Below the pieces are notes generated by a model. That model did not search any database. It was not told the DNA's origin and saw only the letters and a program-made list of their open reading frames with translations. 64,000 nucleotides of DNA from Naegleria gruberi (taxonomy: Eukaryota), in the NCBI GenBank assembly GCA_000004985.1, contig GG738883.1; one strand, 5' to 3'. Of this stretch, positions 772-64,000 are shown in pieces (the stretch's first letter is position 1; every line of letters starts with the position of its first letter). The translations under genes were made by a program, and so were the position numbers.

Positions 772-3177
772 ATGTTAACAGACTTTGAAATCAATGATGA
801 GAATAATCATCAGGACGATCAGGGCTATGATGAAATTATTGGAGGAGAAGATCATCATGTTCGTAATAGTAACGAAACAAAATTTGATAATTTACCGGAG
901 GAAGTAATTGCAAATATTTGTTCATGTTTTATGAGAAATTCAACAACAAATTTAGCAGAAAGAAAAGGACAACAGGATTTTTCTGAAAATTCATTGTTTG
1001 AGTATGAAGATTTTCATACTGTCAATATTGATGATTTAATAGATATTTATCCATTATCGTTACTTAATAGAACTATTAGAAACAAAATTTTAAATAATAA
1101 TCATTTGTGGAATGAACAAATGATTGTTGATCTGAGTGAATTTTCAAAATCAACCAAATTATTTAAATATATGAATAAGATTAATGATTGGAATTATAGT
1201 TCATCTGATGATGATCTAATTGTAACAGTAGAAAGAGAAAGACTAAATATTGCTTTGAACTTTCTTTCATGTCTTGGTTTATCTGAATATATTAAAAAGT
1301 TAAAAGTTAGTTGCATATTGAAAGAAGTTGGGTTGAAGGAATCCATTTCATGGTCAAAACTCATTATTCACTCATTCCCTAATCTAACAGATATCATCTA
1401 TTACAGCCTCACTGATAGAAATGTTGTTAAGAGGTACGAATCCTTAGATTGTACTCAGGGAAAATGGCAAAATTTGAGCTCAATAACTGTTTATTTTGAT
1501 TTTACGTCATTATTATCTTTAATAGAAAACCACAAATCTACTATCAAGTCTATTGCTTTTTCTCCAAAAATGTCAGATAGGAAATCAACAGAAGAACTCT
1601 TAAAAAATCCCAAGATACTGGAAAATGTACAGAACATTATTATTAGTATGAAGTTTGATTCTGCAATGATGGAATCTAACAAAAATTATATGGAAAAGTT
1701 TGGTGCATTAAACATAGATTGTTCTGCTTTAGATATAGAGCGTTGGATTCCAAAACTGACACACCTTAAAAAGTTGGTGTTGGAAGGAATATACAATCCA
1801 AATTTTAAAATTGAAAACGTTAATTTCACAAATTTAACTGAGCTAGTGATATGTTTAGCTAATCAATCGGAATTAGCTTTCAACAATGTTCAAGCTCCAG
1901 AATTGCAAGAGCTTAGCATTTCTAATGCATCAATAGAAGCATCAACAGAGCCATTTAAAAATTTGCGATCATTGAAATTTCAAACTTGTAATTATGATCA
2001 AAATTTTTGGATCAAATCTCACCCTACACTCATGTACTTTAGCTTGTTTTTTCCAGAGTTTAAAGACACTATGTATAATCGCTCATTTTCATTGACTGAC
2101 AATCAAAGCTTACTTGTTATTTTACTTACCTCACTGGAATCTGTCTCTATAACTAACATCAACCCTTCTTGCAAATTATATATTGAAAAATGTCAATCAA
2201 TTCAGATTAATACTAGTAAGATATCTGAAATTTATATACAGAGCTATTCTACTGCTAGCGATATAAATATCAAAGGAGATCACTGTTCAAAACTTCATCT
2301 TCCAAAAGGTATTGAAAAATGTAAAATAGATTTGAATTCAATTAGTGAGATGAACTGTTATTATCAAGATAATTATTCTAAAATATTACCTCTTAGAGCA
2401 CATAACATTTCGTTAGAAACATTGCATATATCCTGCTTTAACATTCCTATTTTTATTAAGGAATTCTTAACATCCTTTAAATATATTGGAACTTGTAAAT
2501 GTGTTATCAGTCATGATCATACATACTCAAAAGTATACAAAAACATTAGTCCAAGCTCTAATCTTGATACTGACATGTCTAGTGTTGAGAAAATAATTAC
2601 TCATGGAGATATATCACTTCATACACATTTGACAAATAGCACCTCCTTACATACAATAATATCTGGAAGCAAATTAATCTGTTCTCCCAATACCACCTAC
2701 TTGAGCACTTCACTCACTCATTTGGAAACAAGTATTCAAAACTTTTCTTCACAATTTGACCTCCCTAATTTGAAAAATTTAATAATTTCTCATTCTGCAG
2801 ATATAGAAATTGATCTTTCTCAATATCCACATCTAGAAGATTTTTCAATTTCTCATTCTAAGAATGTAAAAATTCGAAATACATCCAAGAGTATGGAGAA
2901 AATGAAATTTTTCCTATTGGAGGGTATTAATTCTCTTTCAATCAGTATTGATAATGTACAAGCCCCAAATATCCGAGAAGCCATCATTCACTCAATCAAA
3001 AGCATTGAACCTGGTACTGAGCCAATATTCACTTTATCTCATAGCCCAAAGATGCTCTTTTACTATGTTTCATTTGTGTGGAAACCAGCTTTTAAACCAA
3101 ACCCACCTCGTACACATCAAGAAACTTTTGTAACGCCAATACCTAACGAAAACACCAGAAATTGTGAAATATTATAA
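772..3177 (+). CDS. 801-aa protein with an N-terminal F-box-like motif (LPEEVIANICSCF) followed by degenerate leucine-rich-repeat-like segments
   Basis: Single uninterrupted ORF with a true ATG at 772. F-box-like LPxEVIxxIxxxF motif near residue 40. Repeated LxxLxLxxN/C patterns. AT-rich upstream spacer 587-771 shared divergently with the preceding gene. Confidence 0.5.
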   Translation: MLTDFEINDENNHQDDQGYDEIIGGEDHHVRNSNETKFDNLPEEVIANICSCFMRNSTTNLAERKGQQDFSENSLFEYEDFHTVNIDDLIDIYPLSLLNRTIRNKILNNNHLWNEQMIVDLSEFSKSTKLFKYMNKINDWNYSSSDDDLIVTVERERLNIALNFLSCLGLSEYIKKLKVSCILKEVGLKESISWSKLIIHSFPNLTDIIYYSLTDRNVVKRYESLDCTQGKWQNLSSITVYFDFTSLLSLIENHKSTIKSIAFSPKMSDRKSTEELLKNPKILENVQNIIISMKFDSAMMESNKNYMEKFGALNIDCSALDIERWIPKLTHLKKLVLEGIYNPNFKIENVNFTNLTELVICLANQSELAFNNVQAPELQELSISNASIEASTEPFKNLRSLKFQTCNYDQNFWIKSHPTLMYFSLFFPEFKDTMYNRSFSLTDNQSLLVILLTSLESVSITNINPSCKLYIEKCQSIQINTSKISEIYIQSYSTASDINIKGDHCSKLHLPKGIEKCKIDLNSISEMNCYYQDNYSKILPLRAHNISLETLHISCFNIPIFIKEFLTSFKYIGTCKCVISHDHTYSKVYKNISPSSNLDTDMSSVEKIITHGDISLHTHLTNSTSLHTIISGSKLICSPNTTYLSTSLTHLETSIQNFSSQFDLPNLKNLIISHSADIEIDLSQYPHLEDFSISHSKNVKIRNTSKSMEKMKFFLLEGINSLSISIDNVQAPNIREAIIHSIKSIEPGTEPIFTLSHSPKMLFYYVSFVWKPAFKPNPPRTHQETFVTPIPNENTRNCEIL

Positions 3178-3248
3178 CAATTTCTGGTGTGAAATATTAG
3201 AAACTTTGGATAACTTTTTTTCATTGAATCTGTGGCCAATTAATTGTG

Positions 3249-4730
3249 TTACTCCTCATTCATAGAAATTTCTAAAAACCTCGTTCCATTAAAATCTTTA
3301 ATTGTTTCAATAACAATCTTATCTATTGGATCTGATAATAGCAATACTTCTAACCCTTTCTTGGAATACTGTTCAATAAGTACTTCATTAATATTGGTTT
3401 CAATGCTTAGCAAAAAGTAAATGAATGTTTGTCCCTCCATCATTCTTGAACAATAATCCCTCAAACTCGACCACTCCGTCCTTTTGCAATTCGAGTGAAA
3501 TCTCAAAAGGTCTGTCAGAAGTAATCTATTTGAATCATCTAAAATCACTCCCATCTTGATTTTCCTTCCAAAATTTTGGTAGAAGTTCTTATAATCATCC
3601 TTATTTTCAGCAAGTCTTTCAAACATTTGCAATGTTGCCCTTGTCACACGTTTCCTTATTACTTTTAAAATTTTGTTTTCAGAAAATTGATATAAATTAA
3701 GAGGTAAATCTTCCGAATCTACCAATACTCTCATGAAATCCAAATAGTCTGGTACAATATATTTGCAATTATCCATTATAAACGTGCTTCTTATGTACAG
3801 ATGACTGACAAGCTCATAATTAAAATGGGCCACCTTTGGAATAAACAATAGTAATTTGAATTCAAGAATTCCTTCAACTCTGTAATGAGACATGGTCAAG
3901 TAATCTTCCCAATCATTTGACATTTCCTTATAGAACTGTAAATATTCACTTTTTGAAATTTTTTCAGGATCTCTTGTCCACAAGGGCTGATCTTTGTTCA
4001 AAAACTCACATTTCTGTTCATTATTTTCATCCAGAGTCTGTAGTAACACTGGATATCTAATTGGTTTGGAAAGAACAGTCAGATACATCTTGAGAAATGA
4101 ATTATCCAACAATACAAGTGAATCCTCATTCAAATATAGTGTTACTCTTGTTCCTCTTGTCAATTGTTCAGAACTTGTGTCACTTGCTACTTTGAAAACT
4201 CCATCTCCACTCGATTTCCAAATAAATTGCTCATTTCCATGCATTTTAGATGAAACCACCACTTTTTCAGCAATCATAAATGCTAAATTAAATCCAAAAC
4301 AATTTCCAAACCGTTCCATTACACTACTTTTATCACCTTGTTTCAATAATTCAACATATAATTTCACTCTCTTACTCAAAGAACCTCCTAAATTCAACAC
4401 AAGATCATTCCTTGACATTCCAAATCCTGAATCAATAATACTCAATGATTTACTCTCCAAATCAGGAATTATTTTAATGAATAGTTGAGGTTCACTCAAC
4501 AAGACAGAAGAATCCGATAGACTTGCATATTTAATTCTATCCAAAGCATCAGAAGAGTTGGAAATTAGTGATTTGAGAATAGTTTGCAAGTTATTGGAAG
4601 GAGGAATTTGTTTCAATAATTTGATTAATTCTGCAATTTCCTCTTGAAATAAGAAAGTATCTTCCGATATCTGATGATCTGAAGCCATTTTTTTAATATA
4701 TTGTAATGGATAATATTTTGTAAACAACAT
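3249..4730 (-). CDS. Hsp90-family paralog, truncated: N-terminal ATPase (GHKL) domain plus middle domain, no C-terminal dimerisation domain and no MEEVD. Probable start is the second Met (MASDHQ..., 4688)
   Basis: Strong motif-level identity to Hsp90: [16 protein letters not shown] ~ [29 protein letters not shown] ~ [22 protein letters not shown] ~ [31 protein letters not shown] ~ [43 protein letters not shown] ~ [38 protein letters not shown] ~ [15 protein letters not shown]. ORF ends ...[37 protein letters not shown], aligned to Hsp90 ~residue 540. The catalytic Glu of the LRELISNASDA motif is Ser ([11 protein letters not shown]). Confidence 0.8.
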   Translation of the reverse strand: [493 protein letters not shown]

Positions 4731-27124: not shown

Positions 27125-29692
27125 TTACCAATAGTCACCACAAGTACATTTTCCATCCTTAAAATGGTGGAACCGTGAGGCATCACGAATTATTATTTCA
27201 CAATTTCTAACTGCTGACAACAATTTAGTGGCATTATGGCAATCTCCACAAACCCTCAAGTTCGTTGTTAAATGAATTGTTGATGTATTTGGCTGTTTGT
27301 TGAAAGCATATGCCATGGCTATCTTTTCAGAATGTTTGTATAGTAAATCCAGTTTTTCTGCATCAGTGTCAACATTTTTAATCACCCAGCTTAGGTCTGG
27401 TTGATAACCTGCCTTAATGAGATCAGCTACCATTTTTTTTAGTTCTTTCTCTATCATCTTTATCTCTGGATGCTCCTTTTCTTCACAAACAAAAGAATGC
27501 ATTTTCCCTTCGATACAAACTTGCGTCATACTTGGTAACTTTTTAAATCCACCAAATTCCATCAACTCTTTAACCCTTTTGGCGTCTTCGTACATGTCTT
27601 GAGAAGCATAAATGTTAGCCATTAAAATGAAGTGAGATGATTCCACTTCATTTCGTTCAATAAGCATATTGAAAAGTTTCTCTGCTAAGGTGACATTGTT
27701 GAATTTTCTACAGACCCCAAATAAAGTGGACACAGTAACAACGTCAGGACTGATACAAGACCCTAGCAATTTCTCAGCCTCTTTAATATTACCTTTTCTT
27801 GCCAATGCATCGATCAAACATGCCAAATGTATGTTTGATGGTTTGATTGAATATTTGGACTCCATGTGGTTGTATATTTCTTTTGCTTCGTCCACCATAC
27901 CACAATGGCCACATGCATGCAACACACATGTTAGAGTATGCTCATTTGGTTTAATATTTTCTTTGCTCATTTGGTTCAAAAGTTCAATAGCCTTCAATCC
28001 CATTCCATGTATTGCATAAGCATTTATGATACAGGTCCACGAAACAACATCTTTGTTTGGTACTGAGAGGAAAACTTCATGTGCACTTGTTAAATCTCCA
28101 CATTTTGCATACATATTAATGAGTGCATTAAACAAGTTGTGGTCTCTGATTCTTAGCTCACTAATATTTCTGTGAATTATTTTTCCAAAATCCAAATTTC
28201 CAAATTCAGAGCATACAGAAAGAAGCAAAATAAGGGTTGGTACATCTGGAACCAAGTTGTTATTGATCATATCTTCGTACAGGGAGATAGCTTCTGGCAT
28301 TTTCTTAAGATTGGCCCATAACTTTATCATACATCCATAATGTGCTGTAATTCTTGCTATCTTGAATAAGGTGTTCATATTATCGAACAAGAAACATGCT
28401 TCTTGTTCCATAGAATGATTTGCAAAAAATGTTAACATAACCGTCATGGTTACATCATTCGGTTGGGTATACTTTGGCATGATCTTGAAATAAAGTAATA
28501 ATCTTTTTGTATCTCCATTTTGGGAGCATCCCTTAAGAAATGAGTTCCATGTTATTACATCTTTGAATTCCATTTGGTTGAATATTGATTCTGCATGTTC
28601 TACTTTACCACTCTTCAAAAACGAATCCAAAAGAACATTGAAAACAAAAACAGAGGTAACGCCTTCACTAATAATAATACTTTCTATTTCTTCCAACCTA
28701 CCCTCTTCACAATACGTTGGTATGATTAGTGTCCAAGTTGTATCGTCCAGTTGTTTCGTTTTAAGCATCTTCATAAACAGTTCTATTGCTGTTTGAGTTT
28801 CCCCACATTTCGAAAACATGTTAATGAGATTATTCTGAACAGTAATACTCCTGTATAGTTCATAATTTTTCATAATTGTTTCGTGCAATTTTTTCCCATT
28901 AACTAGAGATCGAGTAATAGCACATCCTTTCAACAAAAGAATAAATGTTACTTCGTTTGGAATGAGTTCTTTCTCTTGTCTGTAAATATTCATAGCTTCC
29001 TCACTTTCTCCATTCTCAATCAATGCCTTTATCAGACAATTAAAGTGAATAATATCTGGAGAAACGCCATATTCTTTCATTGAAAAATAAATTTCTTTGG
29101 CCTTTTCGCTCATGTTTGAATTGGCAAGAGAATTCAATAGTGAAGAAAATGTTTTGGGTTCTATTGGAATCTGTTTGCTTTTGACATATTTTAACAATTC
29201 AAATATGGTGGAAATATGTCCTGTATTGCAAAATCCTCTAATAATATAATTCCATGTTGGTGGATTTACTTTCTTCTTATATTCTTCTTGTAATGAAAGC
29301 ATAATTGTTGAGAGATCATCCCATAATGAGGTACTTCTGTCACTGCTTTCGATTTTGCAATAACTTATTAATGAAATAATAACAAAATAATTTAAAAGTG
29401 ATTTCTCCTTCAATAAATAATAGGCTTTAAAAGAATCATCCAACGACAACAATCTTTTTGATATGAGTAAGTTGGCATCAAAGGAATTTGGTTTCTGGAA
29501 AAAATGTTTCGTTGCTGAATCAACTTTTCCTTCGGCTATTAAATTTCGAACCACTCGATAATCAAAAACAGGAGAGTACGTATGGAAACTATGAAATTTA
29601 TTTGTATCACTAAACTTCAGAGTTTCCATATAAGATTTCTTGCACTTAAGGTTCTTGAAAAGAAAATTTTCAGCACAAACCAGCACACGCAT
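27125..29692 (-). CDS. PLS-class pentatricopeptide-repeat protein with complete E and DYW (cytidine-deaminase-like) C-terminal domain: plant-type organellar C-to-U RNA-editing-factor architecture
   Basis: ATG at 29692-29690. Many 31-36-aa PPR-like helical repeats (e.g. WNYIIRGFCNTGHISTIFELLKYVKSKQIPIEPKTFSSLLNSLANS; SWTCIINAYAIHGMGLKAIELLNQMSKENIKPNEHTLTCVLHACGHCGMVDEAKEIY). C-terminus ...LLYKHSEKIAMAYAFNKQPNTSTIHLTTNLRVCGDCHNATKLLSAVRNCEIIIRDASRFHHFKDGKCTCGDYW-stop. This has the HSE zinc ligands, CxxCH, and the terminal CxC-DYW tripeptide. The ORF uses more CG-containing codons (cga, tcg, acg, ccg) than its neighbours. Confidence 0.85.
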   Translation of the reverse strand: MRVLVCAENFLFKNLKCKKSYMETLKFSDTNKFHSFHTYSPVFDYRVVRNLIAEGKVDSATKHFFQKPNSFDANLLISKRLLSLDDSFKAYYLLKEKSLLNYFVIISLISYCKIESSDRSTSLWDDLSTIMLSLQEEYKKKVNPPTWNYIIRGFCNTGHISTIFELLKYVKSKQIPIEPKTFSSLLNSLANSNMSEKAKEIYFSMKEYGVSPDIIHFNCLIKALIENGESEEAMNIYRQEKELIPNEVTFILLLKGCAITRSLVNGKKLHETIMKNYELYRSITVQNNLINMFSKCGETQTAIELFMKMLKTKQLDDTTWTLIIPTYCEEGRLEEIESIIISEGVTSVFVFNVLLDSFLKSGKVEHAESIFNQMEFKDVITWNSFLKGCSQNGDTKRLLLYFKIMPKYTQPNDVTMTVMLTFFANHSMEQEACFLFDNMNTLFKIARITAHYGCMIKLWANLKKMPEAISLYEDMINNNLVPDVPTLILLLSVCSEFGNLDFGKIIHRNISELRIRDHNLFNALINMYAKCGDLTSAHEVFLSVPNKDVVSWTCIINAYAIHGMGLKAIELLNQMSKENIKPNEHTLTCVLHACGHCGMVDEAKEIYNHMESKYSIKPSNIHLACLIDALARKGNIKEAEKLLGSCISPDVVTVSTLFGVCRKFNNVTLAEKLFNMLIERNEVESSHFILMANIYASQDMYEDAKRVKELMEFGGFKKLPSMTQVCIEGKMHSFVCEEKEHPEIKMIEKELKKMVADLIKAGYQPDLSWVIKNVDTDAEKLDLLYKHSEKIAMAYAFNKQPNTSTIHLTTNLRVCGDCHNATKLLSAVRNCEIIIRDASRFHHFKDGKCTCGDYW

Positions 29693-48676: not shown

Positions 48677-51347
48677 TTAAAAAAATGCGTAATTTCTAGT
48701 TTGAACAAGGTTAAGCAAGGTTTTTGTTTCTGGATTGAATGCATATTGGGGAATGTTGTTTTCTGAATGGAGTGGATAAATGTCCATGATATCTTTTTGA
48801 AGATAATCCATTTCATATTGGGTTAGTAATTTTAAAATGAGTGGATATCTGTAATGATCTTGTTCTAATGTTCTTGCACGAAGAATGCTTCGTTGTTGCT
48901 TGTTGAGAATTTTGGTCAAATTTGGTTGTTTTTCAATCATTTTCTCAATAACTTCATTGTCATAACCAAGTTGTAAATGTAAACAAGTATCACCCAATTC
49001 ATTTTGTTGTTCCAATTCTTCAGGTGTCATTTCATCAATTAATTCCATTGCAAATTGATAATTCTTAAAGTTTAAACTAATCATTGGAATTGTAACATGC
49101 TTGATACCATCTTCAAGCTTATCCGCTAAATCCTGTGAAATTTTACAAGTAACAGGTCCAATAATGCTTCTTCTCTCTTCATCATTGGTTTCACTCTTAA
49201 TATAACAATAAAGTGAATAGATTGCCACCTGATTTGGATTAACAGCATATAATACTAATAAATGTCTCAATAATAAAATGAAATCTTTTCTATTAATTCT
49301 TGTTTTGAGTATTTTCAAACATTCAATTGCACTTTTCCAATCAATTTCCAATAATAATTCACCAATACTGCAAGGTAACCATCCATATTCAAGTGATACT
49401 TGCATTTCAGAATATGAATTTACAAAATATCCACATTGATAAGTATTACATATATAAATTATATAGGCATATAATTCTACAGAGTTAATCAAATGAAAAT
49501 TATTGAACCCATAAATATTTGCAATTGGAATATTGTAATCTCTAAAATAATCAATACATTCTTTCAGTGTAGATAATGATAAATGTTGTAAATTAGCAAA
49601 ACCTCCAAATATATATCCATTCTTTCTAAAACAATCATATTGTAAATGTAAATTAGCAATTTCTTTAACATTAAATGATGAACCATTATTATTATCAACA
49701 ATATTCAATTGTGGATTAGAAAGTAATGCTTGTGGAGTGATAATATTTAAAGATTCAATTTCAATGTGTGAAGGTAGAATTAATTTCAATTTTGCTACAC
49801 TATCCAAAGTAGTATCTAATAATTTCACCCTCTCTAATTTATCTAATAATAAATTTTCTGTATGAGAAATTGATATTTGACCTTCAACTACTTCTACAAG
49901 TTTCAATTTTTCACAACATGAAAATGATATTAATAATTGGTTTGTAAGTGTCCTAATTGCAATTCTTTTTAATCTATTATTCTTTCCTAATTTGTATATT
50001 TCCATTTATAAATATATATTATAAATAATAATAACAAAACATACCAATACATTGTAATACATTTTCATAAACTTGAATTAACTCATTAAATGATGATGAA
50101 TTTGAATCTAAAAATATTGCATTTGATATCTTTAAACTTGATAATTCCAATGGCATTGATGATTCATATAATTTTTTCCTACACATCATTGTATTAATAT
50201 CACCTGAATTTATAGGTGTAAATAATCCATTATTATTGGATGAAAATGGAAATTTTGATTGAGCATCTGGTAAATTTTCTCTTCTTAAAATTTCTCTTTC
50301 CAATTCTTCATTGGTTAAATTTAACATTTCTTCAATTGTTTTTGGTTCAATTTTTGGTAAAATATTATCAAATACATTAGTAGAATTATTATTAGAATTA
50401 AATAAATTATTATTACCAAATATGTTATTACCAAATATAGATGAATTTGGTGTTGATTGTTGTCTACTAAATGGAGTTGGCAATGAATTTCCAATTTTAA
50501 AAAACTCTGTATTTTCCTTAATGTTATTAGGATTTTCAGTAGTTATTGATTTTAATAATTCAAAACTATTAGAATAAATAAATAAATCTTCCAAATTTGT
50601 TAATTTTTCATCATGTAAATTTTGTTCTCTCAAAAAACATAAAAAATAGAGAAAATCAATGGAACGATCTGTCAATTTACAATTTGTTAAATCCAATTCA
50701 TCAATTTCTAATATTTTAATTTTCATTCTCTTTGAATATTCTCTGTTAATTAATCTCATTTTGTGTAGAGTTTGAAATTTAGTATCCATTACATGAGTTA
50801 ATTCAAAATTATTAATTCGTTTAATATTTTCAATTGGGTTGAAAAAGTTTGAAATTAAATGTTTCACCTGATCATATTCGAAACCTAATTGTTCAACAAA
50901 TTGATTAATATCTTGTTTAAATTTACTTTTCAATGAATAGCTGGGAATAAAATCAATAATATTATATTTAATATTATTAGGTAATTGTTTAATATCATTA
51001 CAATCAACCCAATTATTATTATTATTATTAGTATTAGTATTAACATTTGTAGTAGTATTATTTAAGAGTCTTTTTTGATCTTGTAAAATCCATAATTTTG
51101 TTAATTCTGGAGCATTTTCATAAATTGACCATGAAAATTTACTACTAACATCATTATTATCAATTGATTGATGTAATCTTGTTAATAATAATTGTTGAAA
51201 ATGTGAGAGTGATATATTATCTATTTGTTGATTATATTCAATAATGGGAGTATTAATTCTTCTTTCTTTTAAATATATAGTTATAAATTTAAACACATAT
51301 TGAATTATAATTCATACCTTGATTGTTAGCAAGTGAAGTGAACATTT
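48677..51347 (-). CDS. Member 1 of a tandem paralog pair (unknown family; C-terminal half has ankyrin-like G-D-T-C-L-H turns); three exons 51347-51320, 51265-50045, 49986-48677. Introns 51266-51319 (54 nt, GTATGA...AAAAG) and 49987-50044 (58 nt, GTATGT...TTAG)
   Basis: Short first exon ATG TTC ACT TCA CTT GCT AAC AAT CAA G (MFTSLANNQ) at 51347-51320 joins to -ERRINTPIIEYNQQ... The track ORF 50019-51296 starts at GTG. Second junction ...LQCIG-G-KNNRLKRIAIRTL... keeps the frame. Shared motifs with the downstream paralog: FSWS(I/N)YEN(A/I)PEL(T/V)KLWI(L/I)QDQ(K/R)R, YHKMRLINREY(S/A)(K/S)RMK(I/L)(K/R)IL, YQFAMELIDEMTPEELEQQNELGDTCLH, MDYLQKDI. Confidence 0.6.
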
Positions 51348-51469
51348 TTTAATAACAATTTTTGTTAAAACACACACGGACACTCAACAGGACAAGTTTC
51401 ACAATGACAGGTATCTTTATTTCTTTTAAAAAGCGGAAATTATTGAAATTTACAATGATAAATATTTTA

Positions 51470-54025
51470 TTATTGGAATTTCAATAGAACATTATTTTCA
51501 GGATGGTATTCATAGAGAATTTTAGATCCATCTTCAGATATTAATGGTGTTTTACCTTTGATATCTTTTTGAAGGTAATCCATTCCATATTTGGTTAGTA
51601 ATTTCAAAACTATTGGATATCTATTCTTGTCCCTGGCTAGAAAGTGTAAAATATTTCGTTGTTCTGGATTGAGAATTTTAGTCAACTTTGGTTGTTTTTC
51701 AATCATTTTCTCAATAACTTCATTGGTATGAAAAACTGGAAAATGTAAACAAGTATCACCCAATTCATTTTGTTGTTCCAATTCTTCAGGTGTCATTTCA
51801 TCAATTAATTCCATTGCAAATTGATAATTATCAAATGGTAGGGAAATTATTGGCATGGAAATGATTGAACGACCAAGTTTTTCAGAAAATTCTTTGGAAA
51901 TAATGCTTTCTACAGGTGACATGATTCTCTTCATTTCTTCTTCATTGGCCTGTGATTTGATATATCTATAGATTGGATAGAGACCAATTGAGTTATCATT
52001 AATCAAAGAACTTAAAAGTGTTGCTCTCATGAGTAGAATGAAATCATGTCTATCCATCTTGTTTTTAAAGATTTCCAAACATGTTTGAGTACTCTCCCAA
52101 TCAAGTGATAAAATTCTTTCATCTAAATTAGTTGGAATCCATCCAAGTTCAAAGTATTTTTCCAAGCCTGCATAATTGGTAATTCCCATTCTACCTCCTT
52201 GATAAGTATTGGAAATATAAATCAAATAAGCAAGAATATTATCATCTACATAGTGTAATTGAAATTCTTCTAATGAAATATTGTGTTCCATAATATAATC
52301 ACAAATTTGTTTCTTATCAAGAATTGTAAGTGTTAGCAAGGCACTTGATATAAAATCTCTTCTATGTCTAAAATAGGAATATTCAAAATGTTGTTCAATA
52401 TACTCTTTCATTGAATTGATTGTATTATCCACATATAAATGAACCTTGTCAGTGGTATGTGATGAATTATCTAAATATTTTTTACCATTCACATAGATAA
52501 CGTGTGGTGTTGGAGAGTGTATGCCTTCTACATCTTCCAAATGATGACACACAAGTTTACAACTCTTTGGAATATGTTCAAGTAGATCATAATCACCACA
52601 CTAAATTATTGTTATGTATTATGTGTTTCAAATTATTGTAAACTTACCAAACAATCTGATGATGTTTTGAATAATTCAATTTCCTCCAAAGTGGTAAATG
52701 AAGAAAGAATTATTGGATCACAGTGCAAATAATGGTCTTCAACGATGAATTTCAACTTCTTCAATCCCTTACAAACAGAAAGAGCTTGTAAAATTAAATC
52801 ACCACTCTCACTAAGTCTAAGAATCTCCAATTGAGTATTGACATCTAAAAACTCTAAAATATCATTACTTAATTGAAAACGTGATCTTTTTTTAACGGAT
52901 ATTGGTCCACCTGGTAATTCTAAAGCAAAAATATAAGAGTATAATTCTTTTTTGTAATCTTCTTCCTCTTCTGGTTCATCAATAAAGGATGATGATGTTT
53001 TCTTTTTCTTTCTTGGACCCTCTATCTTTCTTGTTTGTGTTAGTTCGAAAATGAGATTCTCCACCTGTTCATCATTTAAATTAACAATGTCATGTAGAGT
53101 GAGTTTCTTTTCCTCATCTTTCTGTTTCTCTTCTTGAATTTCATCATTACCAGTGGTAGTGAAACCATAACTAGCCTTTGTTGCCATCTTTTTCTTTGGT
53201 ACCTGTGCAGTGACATATAACATTGATTTGATGGTATCAATGTGTTTGTAAATAATTGGATCACTTAAATCAATCAAATTCTTTTCAAGCATTGATTGTT
53301 CTTTGATTAAATCTAAGAAATAAATCAAATTGTCTTGATTATTGCCATATTCAAAGGAAAGATTTGATAAATCAATATCAGAACTCTTTAAAATTCTTAA
53401 TTTCATTCTTGAAGCATATTCTCTATTAATTAATCTCATTTTGTGATAGGTTTGAAATTTAGAATCATATATATGAGTATGTTCAAATTTTCTTCTCGAA
53501 TCAACTTGGATAGGATTTAAACAAGATGCAATTCTACTTTTAACTTGTTCATAATTCAACCCTGTCAATTCCATCTTTGATTTGAAATTATTAATTTCAC
53601 TCTTAAAACTATCAATAGGAGAAAAAGTTGGAATAAAATCAATAATTTCATATTTTAAATCTTGTGGAAGTGATTGTAATAAATCACATGAAATTGACAA
53701 CAATTGTTTTTCATCAACACCACGAATTGATTTGGAGGCTTGTTGACGTCTTTGATCTTGAATAATCCACAATTTTACAAGTTCCGGAATGTTTTCATAA
53801 TTTGACCATGAAAATTCATCATTAATATTTCTCTTCAAGGCTTGTTCGAGAAGTGAATGAAACTTTTTAATGGCTTCTTCATTCTGATAGGGAATGGATG
53901 ATTGTTGGTGTCTATATCCACGACCACGACCACTAACTAGTGATTAATTTTGATCTGTTACATTAAATGATCATCAATTTTTGAAACATACTTGATTTAC
54001 GTGCTGTTGCTTTGGTTCTTGCCAT
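51470..54025 (-). CDS. Member 2 of the tandem paralog pair; three exons 54025-53992, 53936-52648, 52600-51470. Introns 53937-53991 (55 nt, GTATGT...CACTAG) and 52601-52647 (47 nt, GTAAGT...TTTAG). First exon encodes MARTKATARKS
   Basis: Track ORFs 52633-53838 and 51470-52552 start at TTG and GTG; the frame is open upstream of 53838 to a TAA. The 34-nt first exon ATG GCA AGA ACC AAA GCA ACA GCA CGT AAA TCA A plus intron joins in frame to -I-SGRGRGYRHQQSSIPYQNEEAIKKFHSLLEQALKRNINDEFSWSNYEN... The second intron (donor after ...SSDCL) joins to CGDYDLLEHIPKSCKLVCHHLEDVEG... Gene order, exon structure and motifs parallel 48677-51347. Confidence 0.55.
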
Positions 54026-54183
54026 TCACTGAGTTAACTCTTTGATATTTTTTTAATGATTTTCTTGTTAGAACTGGATTTTGTTTTTTACAATGAACAA
54101 GACAACCCAATAGAATACGTACTCAAATATTTAATGGTTTTTAAGATGTTTTTATTAATTTTGTCATCTTTTGATAATTGATT

Positions 54184-54862
54184 TTAGGCTTTGAGTTCTT
54201 CTTCTAGAGTAAGACGAGCTTCTTCTTCAATAATACCTCTTTGTAAATCCAAATCTCTCTTATGCCATATTCTCCATTTATCAACATTGAATAAATTAAT
54301 AGCCTTTCCTTTTGGTCTAGCACAAGCGCAACATTGACATAATAACATTTCAATAATTGAATTGCAAAGACTGAACATCTTGAGCCAGAATGGATCTTCC
54401 ATACGAACAGTTGGGTCTGGATTATAATCTTCCATACATTTAATACCAGTCAATGCTCCAACAAGTAAAATTAATAATCCAATAATTGCTGAATTTACAA
54501 TAACTACAACTTGAAGAACAGAAAGTTGATAGGAAAGAACTGCTACTTCATCTTTTGTTGCGTACTATTAAATGATATTAAAGAATAGTTGATGATAATG
54601 GTGATGATGCGTACATAATAATATTATTGTTACTCTTAAAATTACCAATACCTACGTCTGTATTATTAAATAAAGATGTATTCATATTAGGTTCTACAAT
54701 ATTGATATTATTCACGGAATTGATATCTTCCAATGCTGTATAAACAAATGTATTTGAAACAAGTAAAAGAAGAGTTATAACTCCAAAGGCAAAGATACCC
54801 AATCTTTGGGTGAGGGATCGTCTAGATGAAGTATTGGTGCTACCACCCGAAATTCGCTTCAT
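54184..54862 (-). CDS. Small two-TM membrane protein with a Cys cluster (LLCQCCACARPKGK) and an acidic C-terminal helix; one intron of roughly 80-90 nt around 54561-54652 (exact junctions ambiguous)
   Basis: Upstream ORF MKRISGGSTNTSSRRSLTQRLGIFAFGVITLLLLVSNTFVYTALEDINSVNN... (TM 1). Downstream frame ...KDEVAVLSYQLSVLQVVVIVNSAIIGLLILLVGALTGIKCMEDYNPDP... (TM 2) ...DLDLQRGIIEEEARLTLEEELKA. Several phase-compatible donor/acceptor pairs exist (GTAGGT...AATAG phase 0; GTAACA...AAAAG phase 1), so I cannot choose between them. Confidence 0.4.
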
Positions 54863-59300: not shown

Positions 59301-62300
59301 AACTTGCATATAACCTTCTTGAACTGAATCACCTTCAATTTGTGATAATAAAAATGGTAAAGATTTTTGTAAACGTGAAACACCTTGTGCTGAAATAACT
59401 TCACATAAAGCTTGTGCTGCACCTGATCTTTCAGTTACATATTCATCACCTTGTTGAATTAATTTTTCATGTAACCATGACATGACACCTGATAAATTAT
59501 CTTCACCAACTGATTTACATAATTGACCTATAGCTTTAGCAGATGATGCACGTACTTGTGGATTTGGATCCATTAAAATATTCTTTAAAATTGGTATCAA
59601 ATCAACCATATATGGGAATAAATCTCTCTTTGGATCTAAAATTAAAGCACTAATTGATCCAATAATTTGACATGCCTTCTTTTTAATATCTGTATAACGT
59701 TCTGTTAAAGCACGTGTCAAGACTGGCATTAAAAGTGCCAATGAAGCACTATCAATAGAATGTGTAAATCTTGTAAATAATAAAGATTCTAAAACCTTAT
59801 CAATTGTTTTTTGATCTGGATTTGTTAAAGCATCTAATAATAAAGGTACTTGTTTAGAAATTTCAGGTGATCTTGATGCACCACCTACTCTTTCTAAACT
59901 TCTCTTTGATGCTTCAACAATATCTGGATGTGTTTCATTAACTGCTTCTTTCAATATTTTAATTATAGTTGGTAAATAGGAAGATAATTGTCTTGGAGCA
60001 CAATATGCCATATGACCTAATAATTTAATATTAGCTGCTTTTTGTCTCCAATTATCATTTGATGTAGGTTGAATAACAGAAGGTAATAATTGAATTACTC
60101 CATATGGTGTTAATTGTGATAAAATAGATGAAACAGCTTGTTCTGCACTTGAACGTACTTCCTTTGTTGGATCACTTAATGCATAATTTAAAATAACAGG
60201 CATTACTTCAACAATGTATGGTTCAAATGTATTTTGGAAACGATGTGAAATACATTCCAATGCTAACATACATCCTTCTTTACCTTTTTTATCTGCCTTA
60301 TTATTTGTTAAATATTGATTCATTGGTGAAATACCATATTGATATAAATCTAATAATCCACATCCATATAAAACACCTGCTAATCCCCATGCAAATCCAC
60401 GTTTAACACCATAATTATTTGGAATATTCTTTCCATTTGATAATGTTGTTGTACCATATAATAAAAATGATAATAATCTCTTATTAATTAAATCATTATG
60501 AATATAATCTTGTTCCTTTTCATAAATATTTTGAATTAAAGGTGATAATGCTTCACTAATTGATTTTTGAACTGAATTTGAAGGTATAATTAATGTATCA
60601 ATTAATTGATCAATGGCTTTTTTAATCTTTTGAATATGTGTTTGTGCATTAAAATATTTTGAAACACTTCCATACCAAACAACAACAGTTGCTGTTGCAA
60701 AATCATTTGATGTTTTTTGTAATTGATTAATATATCCATCAAATAATTCAATTAATAAATTTGCATCATGTTTACCATGATTATAAACAAGTGCTAAACC
60801 AATATTAACCATTTCATCTAATAATTCTTGATAACATGATTCTAAATTAGTTTCAATTAATCTAAAACCATCATTAACAATAAAATCAAATAATAATTTC
60901 AATTCATATTTTGTAAATGGTGAAATTTCTTGTAATAACCATGAAATTGTAATTAAAGGTTCAAAACTCTTTTCATTTTCAAGTTTTAATTGTTTTTCTT
61001 TAAATGTTTTAATAACTCTATTTAAAATAGATTGAACAAGTAAAGAATTTGAATCACCTTTTTTCATTGAAATATTTGTATCAGATCCAATTAATTCTTT
61101 TAATGCACCTGTTATAGTTAAACATGAATTATTTCTAGAATAATAAGAATCATATTTAGTTTCACATGTAATTAAAGGAATTGATTTTTCAATAACTTGA
61201 TTTAAATTTGATTTAAATTGTTCTTTTTGAATGAATGGTTTTGATAAAACTTTACATTCTTCACTTGTATCAAATTGTGAATAATATAAAATAAATTTAA
61301 TATCATCCAATGTATTTAATGATAACTTTTTCAAATCACCCTTTGTTAAATATTGACAAAGTGTTTTTAAACAATATAATCTAACATTTTCCATTTCAGA
61401 ATACATAATAGAATGTATCATTGATTTAAATTCATCAATTAAATAAGGTGACATTGACATCATTGAATTAAATCCTTGCTTATTTAAATGTGGAATAAAA
61501 GGTAAAACTTCATTAACACAAATTTCCATTACCTTATTTCTAATAAGACTTGTTAAATCTGATTTACCTGCATGTGCTGATAAAATACTCATACATGTTG
61601 TTAATGAAGATGATTCAAAACGATGTTCTGGTTTAGAAATAATTGATTGTCTATTTAAAATAGATTCTAATAATGGTAATAAACATGTAAATTCTTCAGA
61701 TTCTAACATGTTTGGAAATTGTAATCTAATTTTATGAATAATATAATCTCCAAATGTTACATTATTATCATGTGTTGGAATATAACGTGTTAATTTATCT
61801 TCATATTCTCCACTTTCATTATTAAACATATTTTTAATACGGAATGTTGCAATTGCTAACATTTCTGCAATACATTCATTTGAAACTGTATTCTTTCTTC
61901 TACTTGTTGTTTTAGGTTGTGAATCATTAGCAAAATCTAAATGTACCAATGTATTTCTATTAACATTCTTTAATATATTAAATGCTTGTGATGAAATTGG
62001 TGCAAAATATTTATATTTATCTAATAAACTTGTTACATTAAATAATAATAATGACCAAGCAAATTTAATATAATGTGTACGAATATGATGTTCTTCAACT
62101 TTATCATTTGATGTATTAGAAGTAGTAGTATTAGAAGTAGTAGTATTAGATGAAGTAGTATTAGAAGAAGTAGTATTAGATGTAATATGAGAATGTTCTG
62201 AAATATTACTAATAGATGTATTATCATCATCTAATGAACTTGTTGTAATAATATCAATTGAAACTTTATCACCATTTGTTAAAAGAGTAATATCATTAAT

Positions 62301-64000
62301 TAAAGATAATAAATGTTGAATCTTATCAACTTGTTTTTGAATAGATTGTTTAACAATATTTTCCTTTTTTAACATATTTTCTTTAACAAATTGTTTTCTA
62401 GATTCTTGTAAATTCTTTTTAATAGTCTTTTCCTTATTTTGAATAACTTCCCATTCTTTATCAGTTAAATGATATCTATAATATTTAATAGTTTCCTTTT
62501 CATTCATAAATGGAATAGAATTAGATTGTCTAAAAATAGGATGTTTGTTAACTTCAGTATCTAAATCATGATATGGTTCTTCTAAATTATTTCTATTATA
62601 AACAATAAAATCAGTTAAATTATAATCATCACTTTCAAATAATAAATAATAATGTGAATGTAATTCTTTAGAAATTAATTCAAAAATTCTTGTTGAATGT
62701 TTAGAATGTTTAAATAAAATTAATGAAATAATTGAATATGAAATTGCCTTTCTATTAAATGTTGAATTATTTACCAATTCATTTAATAAATAAATTGTCA
62801 TTTCTTCATATTTATGTGAAATTGTATTATTTAAAATATATTGTTTATATTTTTCATTATGTACTAATGAATGAATATTATCAACAATTAATGGATGATG
62901 CATTAATATAAATAATTTATAAATACTTGTTTTATCTTGACATTTAATATTTAAACAATCTCTAAATGTTTCAATAGCAAATCTTAATGAACTATGTGTA
63001 TATAATTTGTTATTATTTGTAGTAATATTAGATGTAGTAGTATTAGTAGTAGATGTAGTAGTATTAAAATCATCATCTTGTAATTTCTTTTTATTAAATT
63101 CATTTTCCAATTCAATAATAAAAGATTGACTAAATGAATCTAATAAAATTTGTTCAATAATGAAATTATCACTTGTATTATTATTGTAATAATTGATCAT
63201 TGATTTTGATAAAATTTCTTGTGCTTGATGATTTTCTTTACAATTACTTAATGCAATACAACATGCTAAATATAAATCAGATTTAATTGCATTTGAAATA
63301 TTTGAATTAATAATTTTTTGTAATTTAATTGAATTTTCTGATTGATTATTAAATAAAATATTTGAAATTAAATAAGAAAGTGCAATAAAATCCTTTGAAT
63401 TTAATAATTCAATAGTTTCCTTATTAAAAATAAAAGTTAAAATTTTTTTAGTATTTTGTTGTAATAATTTAACAATAGATTCCTTATTTTGTACTAAAAT
63501 AGAATGTGTTAAAATTTCAAAACAATAAATTGCAAGTGATCTTAATGATTTCTTCTTTTCTGAATTTAAAATTGTTTCAATTAAAAAATTTTCTAAATTT
63601 GAATCTAATTGATCAATTGCAAAATGTGAAATGAATGAAATAATTGATTTTTTAACTTGATTAATTTCTTCACTTTCTAATTTAAATATTTTTGTTAAAT
63701 TTTCAAAATTTTCAAGTTTTTTAACATTTAATAATTCTAAAATATTAAATAAATAAATAAATGTTTGTGCTAATTCTGATGTAATTGTTGTTGTTGATAA
63801 ATATTTAAAAATAAAATTAATAAATGTTTCTAAATTTGATAATTCTAATTTAAATTCATTAAATTCTTTATCAAAAATTGATGAATTTTTAACTTTTTTT
63901 AAATATAAATAAATTGATTCAAATAAAAATTGTAAAGTTTTTGTATCTAAAAATGTAAATTCACTACTATTAATAAATAATTTATCATTTTTAATATTAG
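56361..64000 (-). CDS. gcn1: GCN1 (eIF2-alpha kinase GCN2 activator; HEAT-repeat ribosome-binding protein), partial: C-terminal ~2,545 aa in the window, N-terminus beyond the 3' edge
   Basis: 2279-aa track ORF. The same frame stays open upstream of the annotated Met (63200) for at least 180 nt that I translated (...ETIELLNSKDFIALSYLISNILFNNQSENSIKLQKIINSNISNAIKSDLYLACCIALSNCKENHQAQEILSKS-MINYY...). Protein is HEAT/ARM-repeat throughout. The region containing ...RILDPKRDLFPYMVDLIPILKNILMDPNPQVRASSAKAIGQL... and ...LLSTHSSSNGLLTDTQLRTLGDVCESV... is characteristic of the GCN1 eEF3-like HEAT block. Ends with acidic tail ...EDSDLEAEEEEEERFYE. Confidence 0.85.
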   Translation of the reverse strand, partial: NIKNDKLFINSSEFTFLDTKTLQFLFESIYLYLKKVKNSSIFDKEFNEFKLELSNLETFINFIFKYLSTTTITSELAQTFIYLFNILELLNVKKLENFENLTKIFKLESEEINQVKKSIISFISHFAIDQLDSNLENFLIETILNSEKKKSLRSLAIYCFEILTHSILVQNKESIVKLLQQNTKKILTFIFNKETIELLNSKDFIALSYLISNILFNNQSENSIKLQKIINSNISNAIKSDLYLACCIALSNCKENHQAQEILSKSMINYYNNNTSDNFIIEQILLDSFSQSFIIELENEFNKKKLQDDDFNTTTSTTNTTTSNITTNNNKLYTHSSLRFAIETFRDCLNIKCQDKTSIYKLFILMHHPLIVDNIHSLVHNEKYKQYILNNTISHKYEEMTIYLLNELVNNSTFNRKAISYSIISLILFKHSKHSTRIFELISKELHSHYYLLFESDDYNLTDFIVYNRNNLEEPYHDLDTEVNKHPIFRQSNSIPFMNEKETIKYYRYHLTDKEWEVIQNKEKTIKKNLQESRKQFVKENMLKKENIVKQSIQKQVDKIQHLLSLINDITLLTNGDKVSIDIITTSSLDDDNTSISNISEHSHITSNTTSSNTTSSNTTTSNTTTSNTSNDKVEEHHIRTHYIKFAWSLLLFNVTSLLDKYKYFAPISSQAFNILKNVNRNTLVHLDFANDSQPKTTSRRKNTVSNECIAEMLAIATFRIKNMFNNESGEYEDKLTRYIPTHDNNVTFGDYIIHKIRLQFPNMLESEEFTCLLPLLESILNRQSIISKPEHRFESSSLTTCMSILSAHAGKSDLTSLIRNKVMEICVNEVLPFIPHLNKQGFNSMMSMSPYLIDEFKSMIHSIMYSEMENVRLYCLKTLCQYLTKGDLKKLSLNTLDDIKFILYYSQFDTSEECKVLSKPFIQKEQFKSNLNQVIEKSIPLITCETKYDSYYSRNNSCLTITGALKELIGSDTNISMKKGDSNSLLVQSILNRVIKTFKEKQLKLENEKSFEPLITISWLLQEISPFTKYELKLLFDFIVNDGFRLIETNLESCYQELLDEMVNIGLALVYNHGKHDANLLIELFDGYINQLQKTSNDFATATVVVWYGSVSKYFNAQTHIQKIKKAIDQLIDTLIIPSNSVQKSISEALSPLIQNIYEKEQDYIHNDLINKRLLSFLLYGTTTLSNGKNIPNNYGVKRGFAWGLAGVLYGCGLLDLYQYGISPMNQYLTNNKADKKGKEGCMLALECISHRFQNTFEPYIVEVMPVILNYALSDPTKEVRSSAEQAVSSILSQLTPYGVIQLLPSVIQPTSNDNWRQKAANIKLLGHMAYCAPRQLSSYLPTIIKILKEAVNETHPDIVEASKRSLERVGGASRSPEISKQVPLLLDALTNPDQKTIDKVLESLLFTRFTHSIDSASLALLMPVLTRALTERYTDIKKKACQIIGSISALILDPKRDLFPYMVDLIPILKNILMDPNPQVRASSAKAIGQLCKSVGEDNLSGVMSWLHEKLIQQGDEYVTERSGAAQALCEVISAQGVSRLQKSLPFLLSQIEGDSVQEGYMQVFVYLPALMKSQFEPFLEMCLPRILKALSHSKEGIRETSLQSSRVIVELFTDSAMNILVPALREGLESEEWRTRYNCLILLTDLLTRMTTLYGNSDEMSHLDENPIQLTVIERVLSLELVSHIIALTFIAIQDINLKSIANKLWKDMIANTPSTLKNHLTCITDCILKHLNMSEDQRFIAGKALGELVVKLGERVVGELIPMLHQQLLDIDSNPEKRQGVILGVTELMLAASDKHLQTYSIKLIQIVKRGICDDDSTVRDAASSAFDVLCRVMGDRCVKEIVQQLLQDLEKTTNEKLVEIAASGMQQLVRVRPQNVLPKLIPALLSTHSSSNGLLTDTQLRTLGDVCESVYENDHLDEMTEFILPMIEKLVTQLSISPYIDSVTNVADESILILRTITKVLECLNIQESYTIFELIKSQMTSNDIKVRRAANLFMQMMFNPSQYNEENLTEDFINDELLPIYEDLITSFNDPDDNVVKCAWYAVEKLISKCLSKEVHYNDFIQPTRENIRKLTQVSSTGELISIDLPAFNKIPKGIEPILNLYLHGLLFGKTPESRENSALGIGDLICMTSSKQLSPYVIKITGPLIRVAGDRFPWSVKAAILQTCSSLMDKGSIMLKPFLPQLQATFIKGLQDSSASILRKLSEQSIPKLIDLGCRIDSLVSALNVALKSNALSGKGSVNDFVISITRTLTSILTLACDQDKVKGVPFDQCIDTLKKTLALCDSTECANSILSKQAVQQDSDRILDITSQCLAICSRGLYLQKDNSIIDFINQTISQPDNLYVTFIVMAYWSIDKSLSSLVLDKVLSKIIEISQTIQSTPQFAKIAISLTKAATLIVISNNECAIDLLPIIKSQFEKAATSTANALRYEVAKCVKKLIKSYREKYQTEKMFDFVDSLLQIGIKDKFIPAKLCNERSLFYVLGFADNDHLRSISEYCSFKKLNPKDSKFIEDYGAKVLMKLSPEDSDLEAEEEEEERFYE

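Follow-up and report, generated by a model that had tools for sequence, protein, structure and literature searches.

On contig GG738883.1 of Naegleria gruberi (assembly GCA_000004985.1), we analysed a stretch of 64,000 nucleotides, hereafter the window, whose minus strand carries at 51470–54025 a gene for a large non-histone protein that opens with a near-copy of the histone H3 N-terminus. Reading the DNA and assembling the coding sequence over 51300–54400 placed the start codon at 54025–54023 and gave a spliced product of 817 amino acids (Table 1). A sequence-only reading of the window had described a 34-nt first exon, a GTATGT donor and a 55-nt intron that restores the frame into an RG-rich stretch. 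On reassembly, the sequence and coordinates were exactly so, and exon 2 indeed encoded an RG-rich linker, SGRGRGY.

Sequence evidence supports the predicted splice of exon 1 in the tailed gene. A TGA lies in frame directly 5′ of the ATG at 54025 and, when every ATG/GT donor pair of the 5′ region was enumerated, this ATG was the only one that spliced in frame to the exon 2 acceptor. There is a weaker alternative donor, GTAAAT, at 54000; MARTKATA is kept with either donor. The frame of exon 2 is closed by a stop 4 codons 5′ of the acceptor, and its first Met is residue 133, downstream of the conserved WIIQDQ (residue 68) and LPQDLKYEIIDFIP (residue 101). The missing coding sequence must therefore come from an exon further upstream. 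Similarity to a relative from N. fowleri, P0012 (…GYRH…), continues over the junction of exons 1 and 2, where the window side reads MARTKATARKSISGRGRGYRHQ. Finally, the gene forms a tandem pair with its neighbour at 48677–51345, and the other three introns of the pair have sizes (47, 52 and 58 nt) and donors like those of intron 1.

Table 1. Features of the H3-tailed gene and its tandem paralog (positions in the window; residues of the 817-amino-acid product).
Feature	Coordinates	Strand	Description
Exon 1	53992–54025	−	34 nt, ATGGCAAGAACCAAAGCAACAGCACGTAAATCAA; MARTKATARKS and the first base of Ile12
Intron 1	53937–53991	−	55 nt, GTATGT…CTAG, phase 1
Exon 2	52648–53936	−	Opens ISGRGRGYRHQQSS; RG-rich linker SGRGRGY, N-module, acidic/basic low-complexity region with PRKKKK, start of middle region
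Intron 2	52601–52647	−	47 nt, GTAAGT…TTTAG, phase 0
Exon 3, including stop codon	51470–52600	−	YLIYISNTYQGGR box and probable C-terminal ankyrin repeats; stop codon ends at 51470
N-module	53188–53919	−	Residues 18–261; all-alpha, conserved
WIIQDQ motif	53752–53769	−	Within the N-module
LPQDLKYEIIDFIPTFS motif	53620–53670	−	Within the N-module
HKMRLINREYASRMKLRIL motif	53389–53445	−	Within the N-module
PRKKKK	52999–53016	−	Residues 319–324; basic patch that appears to resemble a classical nuclear localization signal (NLS)
YLIYISNTYQGGR box	52190–52228	−	Residues 566–578; YLIYLxNxYQNGR box
C-terminal ankyrin repeats	about 51542–51772	−	Probable repeats; QNELGDTCLH at residue 718 (family …QNExGDTxLH…)
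Tandem paralog, same family	48677–51345	−	852 amino acids; introns 51317–51266 and 50044–49987; family profile A5 (see text), E 1.6e-54

The encoded tail peptide is ARTKATARKSISGRG. Its MARTKATARKS start is identical to residues 1–10 of canonical H3, the sequence against which all tail identities were counted, at 9 of 10 positions, as expected from the single difference that had been proposed. Given the amino-acid composition of the window, an N-terminus would match at least 9 of 10 H3 residues by chance with a probability of 2.5e-11 per protein (~5e-7 over 20,000 genes). No other ARTK-type motif was found in any frame of the window. The M-A-R-T-K start also conforms to M-Z-R-X-K (Met, then A/G/S/C/T/P/V, then R-x-K), the motif rule of H3 N-terminal mimicry proteins. 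Directly after the H3(1–10) copy, SGRGRG (53917–53934, residues 13–18) resembles SGRGK, the N-terminus of H4 and H2A and a substrate context of protein arginine methyltransferases. SGRGRG is not conserved in relatives (STGGG in N. fowleri); instead of a second mimic, it may represent a TGGKAPR that has diverged.

To place the protein in a family, homologs were sought. A first search returned two, P0001 of N. gruberi (28% identity) and P0002 of Willaertia magna (31%), both of which open with MARTKQ(T/I)AR(K/R). To prevent circularity, a profile (A2) was made from protein bodies only, with every tail removed. A2 first picked up another W. magna protein with an H3-like start. When 1.84 billion representative proteins were scanned exhaustively with HMMER, it retrieved 49 relatives at E ≤1e-3, including 33 at E ≤1e-10. 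A further word-index protein search yielded one additional member. The family count used here, 51, is the sum of the 49 relatives and the window pair; several of the members without a tail are 5′-truncated models. With a clear tail defined as at least 5 of 10 H3 residues, 16 of the 51 members have one and 5 more have a degenerate tail (~21/51).

The identity to H3 extends over 21–29 residues in some members. In P0008, the N-terminal 29 residues are identical to canonical H3. P0023 and P0001 also have long H3 tails in which the basic 14–27 region is kept, those of the P0001 type being H3-identical. An H3 tail was likewise found at the N-terminus of N. fowleri P0012, and such N-termini are listed for N. 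lovaniensis P0047 and for P0036, P0039 and P0040. Further N-termini are MARTRACPRKSTGYRIPRRKL in P0005, MARTKVTARGL in P0011 and MARTKATKRRY in P0007; P0022 and P0024 are indel variants that begin with MIRQACRKSIGGKAPRKGL and MYTRHVARKSVGGKAPMKF, respectively.

Membership of the window protein is supported beyond its tail. A profile from a 37-sequence alignment (A5) matched the exon 2 open reading frame (ORF) with an E-value of 1.3e-59. The N-module signature of the family, comprising a WIxQDQ box, LPxDLKYEIIxFIPT(Y/F)S and (F/Y)HKMRLI(N/S)KE(Y/F)xxRM, is present, as are all of the invariant or near-invariant columns (W, I, L, I, F, P, S, D, K and R). The window protein thus has three family signatures: the N-module, the C-terminal box with ankyrin repeats, and the N-terminal H3 tail, which is ancestral and not universal. 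Across the family, paralogs are only 25–40% identical, and tandem pairs occur. The named members come from N. gruberi, N. fowleri, N. lovaniensis and W. magna only, in separately deposited genome records, and all are annotated as 'predicted' or 'hypothetical' protein; the rest are metagenomic. Full-text searches for histone mimicry in Naegleria, for the peptide of the H3 tail together with Naegleria and for six locus tags of the family found no description of it in the literature. The family is undescribed and lineage-specifically expanded in the vahlkampfiid Heterolobosea (Naegleria/Willaertia).

The tandem paralog is 38% identical to the tailed protein. Its first exon (28 nt) encodes MFTSLANNQ, without an H3-like N-terminus, just as the sequence-only reading had it, and a phase-1 intron lies near the position of intron 1 of the tailed gene. 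At the DNA level, the pair is ~71–75% identical. In the ankyrin-coding part, there are two runs of perfect identity, of 89 nt (51741–51829 versus 48975–49063) and 39 nt (51687–51725 versus 48921–48959), both inside a 212-nt block at 86%. These runs suggest that gene conversion has acted locally or that constraint is very strong. Neither the tailed protein nor its paralog was returned from 5.8 billion clustered proteins, and neither was returned by the exhaustive HMMER scan, though that scan listed other members of the query alignment. Neighbouring ORFs of the window are exact N. gruberi proteins, EFC41842.1 (NAEGRDRAFT_50903) and EFC41850.1 (NAEGRDRAFT_58724). The 5′ halves of both tandem genes appear to be missing from public proteomes. 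Because a first exon of 34 or 28 nt is easily missed, the N. gruberi reference probably lacks annotation of both genes or models them wrongly.

To evaluate whether the tails belong to the genes to which they are assigned, the contigs that carry family members were inspected. The JGI contig L001 has an uninterrupted 824-codon ORF that starts with ATGGCAAGAACCAAAGCAACT. In the N. fowleri-like contigs L003 and L004, the ORF has its first ATG at the MARTKQ codon; the upstream extension listed for P0052 begins at TTG. In L005 (ENA) and L006 (JGI), tail and body lie in one ORF with no intron. Since tail and body are colinear in single ORFs of L001, L003/L004, L005 and L006, the tails are not annotation artefacts. 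The member in L002, P0006, is truly tail-less, and its upstream gene is only 56 nt away.

It is accordingly hard to credit that the tail of the window protein is a chance resemblance or a product of its gene model, to which we assign a negligible probability. The splice is predicted from the sequence and the gene is seemingly absent from public proteomes, as might be expected of an artefact. Nevertheless, the chance match is vanishingly improbable, the tail recurs in relatives found independently of it, these relatives include intron-free ORFs, and only the ATG at 54025 feeds exon 2. Chance, which had been left as an option for this tail, was rejected on the per-protein probability together with the recurrence in relatives retrieved by the tail-less profile.

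Two observations on these contigs concern the family itself. In L005, the member is split into adjacent ORFs, 1348–2982 (tail and N-module) and 3003–3833 (the C-terminal part with Ank_5), which probably belong to one gene that is interrupted by a short intron or a frameshift. L001, L002 and L006 are all from JGI sample 3300002220; their members, P0007, P0006 and P0024, each have 23–38% identity to the window protein over the parts aligned by BLASTP. The implication is that the sample holds an unsequenced heterolobosean with a family expansion of its own.

To investigate the history of the tail, a neighbour-joining tree of the N-modules was examined. Tails occur in at least three clades, namely Naegleria/window, Willaertia and a clade of P0022, P0024 and P0036. 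A fourth group, P0039, P0040, P0044 and P0047, was left out of the tree as its members are too short. Tail losses are scattered over the tree, the window paralog among them. This tree makes the tail an ancestral feature of several family clades.

This distribution bears on the proposal that the window gene recently captured the first exon of an H3 gene, or that the tails reflect recurrent gene conversion from H3 genes. The window tail does occupy a 34-nt exon of its own, upstream of an intron, and conversion could maintain identity to H3 over 21–29 residues. However, tails in at least three clades and in three or more species indicate that the tail is ancestral, and relatives have it colinear with the body, with no intron between the two. 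Further, the tail-less tandem paralog has its phase-1 intron near the same place, which shows intron and tail to be separable. Homology with P0012 also crosses the exon junction, and the codons differ synonymously between the species. We therefore consider either process very unlikely. Exon capture from an H3 gene, one of the explanations first offered for the tail, is unsupported as a recent, gene-specific event in view of the ancestral tail, the intron-free relatives and the synonymous changes with respect to N. fowleri. The ultimate source of the tail is likely to have been an ancient fusion with the 5′ end of an H3 gene at the origin of the family.

Sequence identities were then compared along the tail-bearing members. 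The mean pairwise identity is 80% over residues 2–5 and 55% over residues 2–11 (59% between Naegleria and Willaertia). It is 16% over residues 12–21 and 6% over residues 22–41; the linker is at about 6–7%. Between genera, the folded N-module has a mean pairwise identity of 26%. The H3 tail is thus the best-conserved segment of the tail-bearing members. Moreover, the tail codons of the window gene and the N. fowleri-like gene have four synonymous differences. The identity pattern and the synonymous differences together indicate purifying selection at the protein level, not recent transfer of DNA.

The same data speak to whether the tail is a non-functional relic, in which case an ancient fusion to the 5′ end of H3 would have left a tail that decays neutrally, and the 10 residues of the window gene would be inert. 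The graded tail lengths over the family are consistent with such decay, as is the loss or degeneration of the tail in many members, including the adjacent paralog. Neutral decay is difficult to reconcile with a tail that outconserves the folded domain between genera (59% versus 26%, with 6–7% in the adjoining linker), with synonymous differences indicative of protein-level constraint, and with the retention of 9 of 10 residues in the window gene. We consider the relic explanation improbable.

Conservation is not uniform within the tail. Among 19 tails, A1 is kept in 16, the exceptions being S and V, which both permit Met excision, and M. R2 and T3 are each kept in 18, and R8 in 16. Position 4 is K in 12 tails and R in 7, and K9 and S10 occur in about half. 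Tails erode from the C-terminal side, retaining 29, 21, 13, 10 or 4 residues. Judged from this pattern, the constrained unit is the free N-terminal A-R-T-(K/R) together with A7-R8, and not the K9-S10 or K14–K27 regions. The sequence-only reading had emphasized the K4 and K9-S10 contexts. Both are present in the window tail but, family-wide, K4 is frequently replaced by R and K9 and S10 are only moderately kept, the constraint falling on A1-R2-T3 and A7-R8.

To obtain clues to function, the body of the protein was analyzed. It comprises an all-alpha N-module, a variable middle region and probable C-terminal ankyrin repeats. No Pfam family scored above threshold in the window protein. Ank_5 came closest (E 9.6e-6; 26.3 bits, just below the 27-bit cut-off), Ank_2 scored 18.2, and the last ~80 residues matched many designed ankyrin proteins weakly but consistently (E 6e-4). 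Relatives P0047 and P0034 also match Ank_5; beyond Ank_5 and the WGR domain of P0047, Pfam detected nothing in the relatives. A pattern scan of 25 database relatives located the YLIYLxNxYQNGR box in 22 of them, and the window pair has it too. The Histone family (PF00125) had no Pfam match in the window protein or in 10 relatives, and similarity to H3 is over by residue 29 at most. The body is without a histone fold, and the protein is hence not a histone. Leucine-rich repeats had been suspected by eye in the middle region; Pfam detected none.

The tail-less N-module was modelled using AlphaFold2 and alignment A5. The model, which is all-alpha with two short strands, had a pLDDT of 86.6 and a pTM of 0.63; a model from 6 sequences reached a pLDDT of 40. 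In Foldseek searches, the model had no match in the PDB (best E 1.4) or among the predicted viral structures of BFVD (best E 1.2). Similarly, the N-module profile had no match among PDB sequences (best E 0.23). The module may contain an F-box: LxxLPxDLKYEIIxFIP is similar to F-box helix 1, HKMRLINKEYxxRM is similar to helices 2–3, and many F-box families likewise combine lineage-specific expansion with repeats. However, hhalign matched 19 columns only, to helix 1, with a probability of 14%, and the protein cannot be filed as an F-box protein.

One subfamily has an additional domain. In P0047/P0053 of N. lovaniensis, a WGR domain is inserted at residues 227–299 (Pfam E 8e-16). These members bear the UniRef label 'NAD(+) ADP-ribosyltransferase' owing to the WGR; a PARP catalytic domain is not among the domains reported for them. 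As a module of PARP-type DNA-damage proteins, the WGR domain hints at a chromatin or DNA context for this subfamily.

Overall, the data are consistent with the hypothesis that the tail is an ancestral, selected mimic of the H3 N-terminus that engages readers or writers anchored on that N-terminus, a hypothesis to which we give somewhat better than even odds. A histone-tail mimic on a non-histone protein was among the first suggestions for this gene, and it gains support from the longer H3 tails that recur in Naegleria and Willaertia relatives, from the status of the tail as the best-conserved segment, and from a body without a histone fold. In the proposed mechanism, the initiator Met would be removed as Ala follows it, exposing a free A1-R2-T3-K4 on a disordered leader. 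This leader would be bound by pockets that read the H3 N-terminus, such as those of PHD fingers, WDR5, RBBP4, the UHRF1 PHD or the Survivin BIR. K4 and K9 methyltransferases and S10 kinases may be further partners of the tail. The outcome would be either that an ankyrin scaffold is brought to chromatin regulators or that the tail competes with real H3 tails. We infer the Met removal, the binding partners, the nuclear location and the biological role of the tailed protein. Conservation anchored at the N-terminus favours readers of the WDR5, PHD, RBBP4, UHRF1-PHD or BIR type. It speaks against a role centred purely on K4/K9 methylation, and likewise against the tail as a simple NLS, for which residues 11–27 would be needed.

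Several considerations weigh against the mimic hypothesis. Its mechanism rests on analogy, and the body offers no functional clue: no Pfam family reaches threshold, and no solved or predicted viral structure matches it. Because K4 is R in 7 of 19 tails and K9 and S10 are only moderately conserved, methylation of K4 or K9 cannot be the common function. Many members have no tail, including the tandem paralog 2.7 kb away, so the family must fulfil at least some of its role without the tail. In addition, the window gene itself retains just 10 residues of the tail.

In general, the H3 tail is an NLS for histone-specific karyopherins, and residues 1–28 of H3 act as an NLS in yeast. The tail could therefore have been borrowed solely as an import signal that uses the histone-specific karyopherin route. 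The long-tailed P0008, P0023 and P0001 retain the basic 14–27 region, and the WGR domain of P0047 makes a nuclear role plausible. By contrast, conservation peaks at A1-R2-T3, and it is the 11–29 side, the main karyopherin contact, that erodes. The window protein retains residues 1–10 only and has its own PRKKKK patch, and a generic basic NLS needs no 21–29 residues identical to H3. On balance, import as the sole role of the tail seems unlikely, though not wholly implausible.

Amoebae host Legionella, chlamydiae and giant viruses, which raises the possibility that the proteins are integrated decoys or sensors. In such a scheme, the H3 tail would be bait for pathogen effectors that modify host H3, and the ankyrin body would then signal or neutralize them, an amoebal analogue of the integrated decoys of plant NLRs with a histone tail as the bait. 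Lineage-specific expansion, tandem pairs and paralog identities of 25–40%, together with a highly conserved tail, are what such a system might display, and exact tracking of the target would explain 21–29 H3-identical residues in fast-evolving proteins. SET-domain effectors of Legionella that methylate H3 are documented. This support is circumstantial, however. Pfam identified no NTPase, TIR or other signalling domain and no leucine-rich repeats in the window protein and its relatives, and the many degenerate tails would make poor bait. We consider the decoy scheme improbable. We are similarly doubtful of a broader version, in which soluble 'tail-only H3' proteins keep the tail H3-identical for effectors of intracellular bacteria or giant viruses, or for the amoeba's own writers, and the fast-evolving body reports or neutralizes them.

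Returning to the proposed mimicry, the closest precedents are the human H3 N-terminal mimicry proteins (H3TMs), such as VRK1, BCL11A/B, SALL, FOG and PCLAF, which are defined by M-Z-R-X-K (Chen et al. 2021; PMC8166343). PHD and Tudor readers as well as NuRD bind H3TMs in vitro, and their K4 can be methylated in vitro (PMC8166343). As is predicted for the family described here, removal of Met leaves a small residue followed by R-x-K at the N-terminus, like A1-R2-T3-K4 of H3. However, H3TMs share ~4–5 residues with H3 and are unrelated proteins that emerged from a motif search. By contrast, the Naegleria/Willaertia family has a copy of 10–29 residues inherited within one paralogous family.

Other systems resemble parts of this arrangement. 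In PAF15/PCLAF, the N-terminal VRTK… segment is read like an H3 tail by the UHRF1 PHD. The corresponding Pfam family, PF15715 ('PCNA-associated factor histone like domain'), weakly matched two family members via their tails (E 0.084, far below threshold). PAF15 differs in being a small, disordered, PCNA-binding animal protein with an unrelated body. The Ala-anchored N-terminal tetrapeptides of Shugoshin and of IAP-binding motifs (AKER, AVPI) compete with H3 A1-R2-T3(ph)-K4 for the BIR pocket, as in the Survivin BIR. The conservation of the family tail is likewise anchored on A1-R2-T3, but these motifs comprise 4 residues only. Shorter mimics, internal or C-terminal in position, include the ARKT automethylation site of G9a, ARSK of influenza NS1, ARKS of SARS-CoV-2 ORF8, and those of SETDB1 and NOP16; they are described as H3 ARKS/ARTK-type motifs on non-histone proteins that engage histone readers or writers. 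The mimics of the G9a, NS1 and ORF8 type span 4–6 residues, are not anchored at the N-terminus and are in many cases viral, whereas the mimic in the Naegleria family is an endogenous one, sits at an authentic N-terminal end and is much longer in relatives. Over the N-terminal 10–29 residues, the family is identical or nearly so to histone H3 and its variants (CenH3 included). The similarity stops at the end of the tail, however, and the body is 800 amino acids of unrelated helical and probable ankyrin structure. The family differs from all of the described mimics compared (H3TMs, PAF15, G9a, NS1 and ORF8) in having a copy of 10–29 residues, in an authentic N-terminal position, that is conserved in a lineage-specific multigene family.

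The window as a whole is AT-rich (~30% GC) and gene-dense, with short introns. Two 2-kb bins, 14001–16000 and 62001–64000, have only 18% GC versus ~30% elsewhere. Among the eukaryotic proteins that Pfam identified in the window are a PPR-DYW protein, an Hsp90-family protein and an E2F/DP factor; neither the Rfam nor the tRNA scan gave a hit in it. The PPR protein (27125–29692, minus strand; intron-less, 855 amino acids) has an E motif and a DYW deaminase domain, the architecture of plant-type RNA-editing factors. DYW-type PPR proteins have been reported in Naegleria. An 874-amino-acid ORF at 10416–13040 on the plus strand combines TIG/IPT, ankyrin repeats, CUE and a PARP catalytic domain, an unusual architecture that is unrelated to the H3-tailed family.

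Most histone mimics described hitherto are motifs of 4–6 residues, found in viruses or in scattered proteins of cells. The present case is that of a free-living eukaryote that keeps a whole paralogous family in which the N-terminus of H3, with up to 29 identical residues, is placed on a large non-histone scaffold and outconserves the folded domains. If these tails are read or written like H3, they would constitute a soluble pool of H3 tails able to buffer, sense or redirect the chromatin-modification machinery, and a natural experiment that parts the functions of the tail from those of the nucleosome. Measurements of histone post-translational modifications in Naegleria, whether antibody-based or at the peptide level, would then be confounded: tryptic or ArgC peptides of P0001-type tails are indistinguishable from those of H3, whereas TKATAR is diagnostic for the window gene. 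The occurrence of the family in the pathogen N. fowleri lends it some applied interest.

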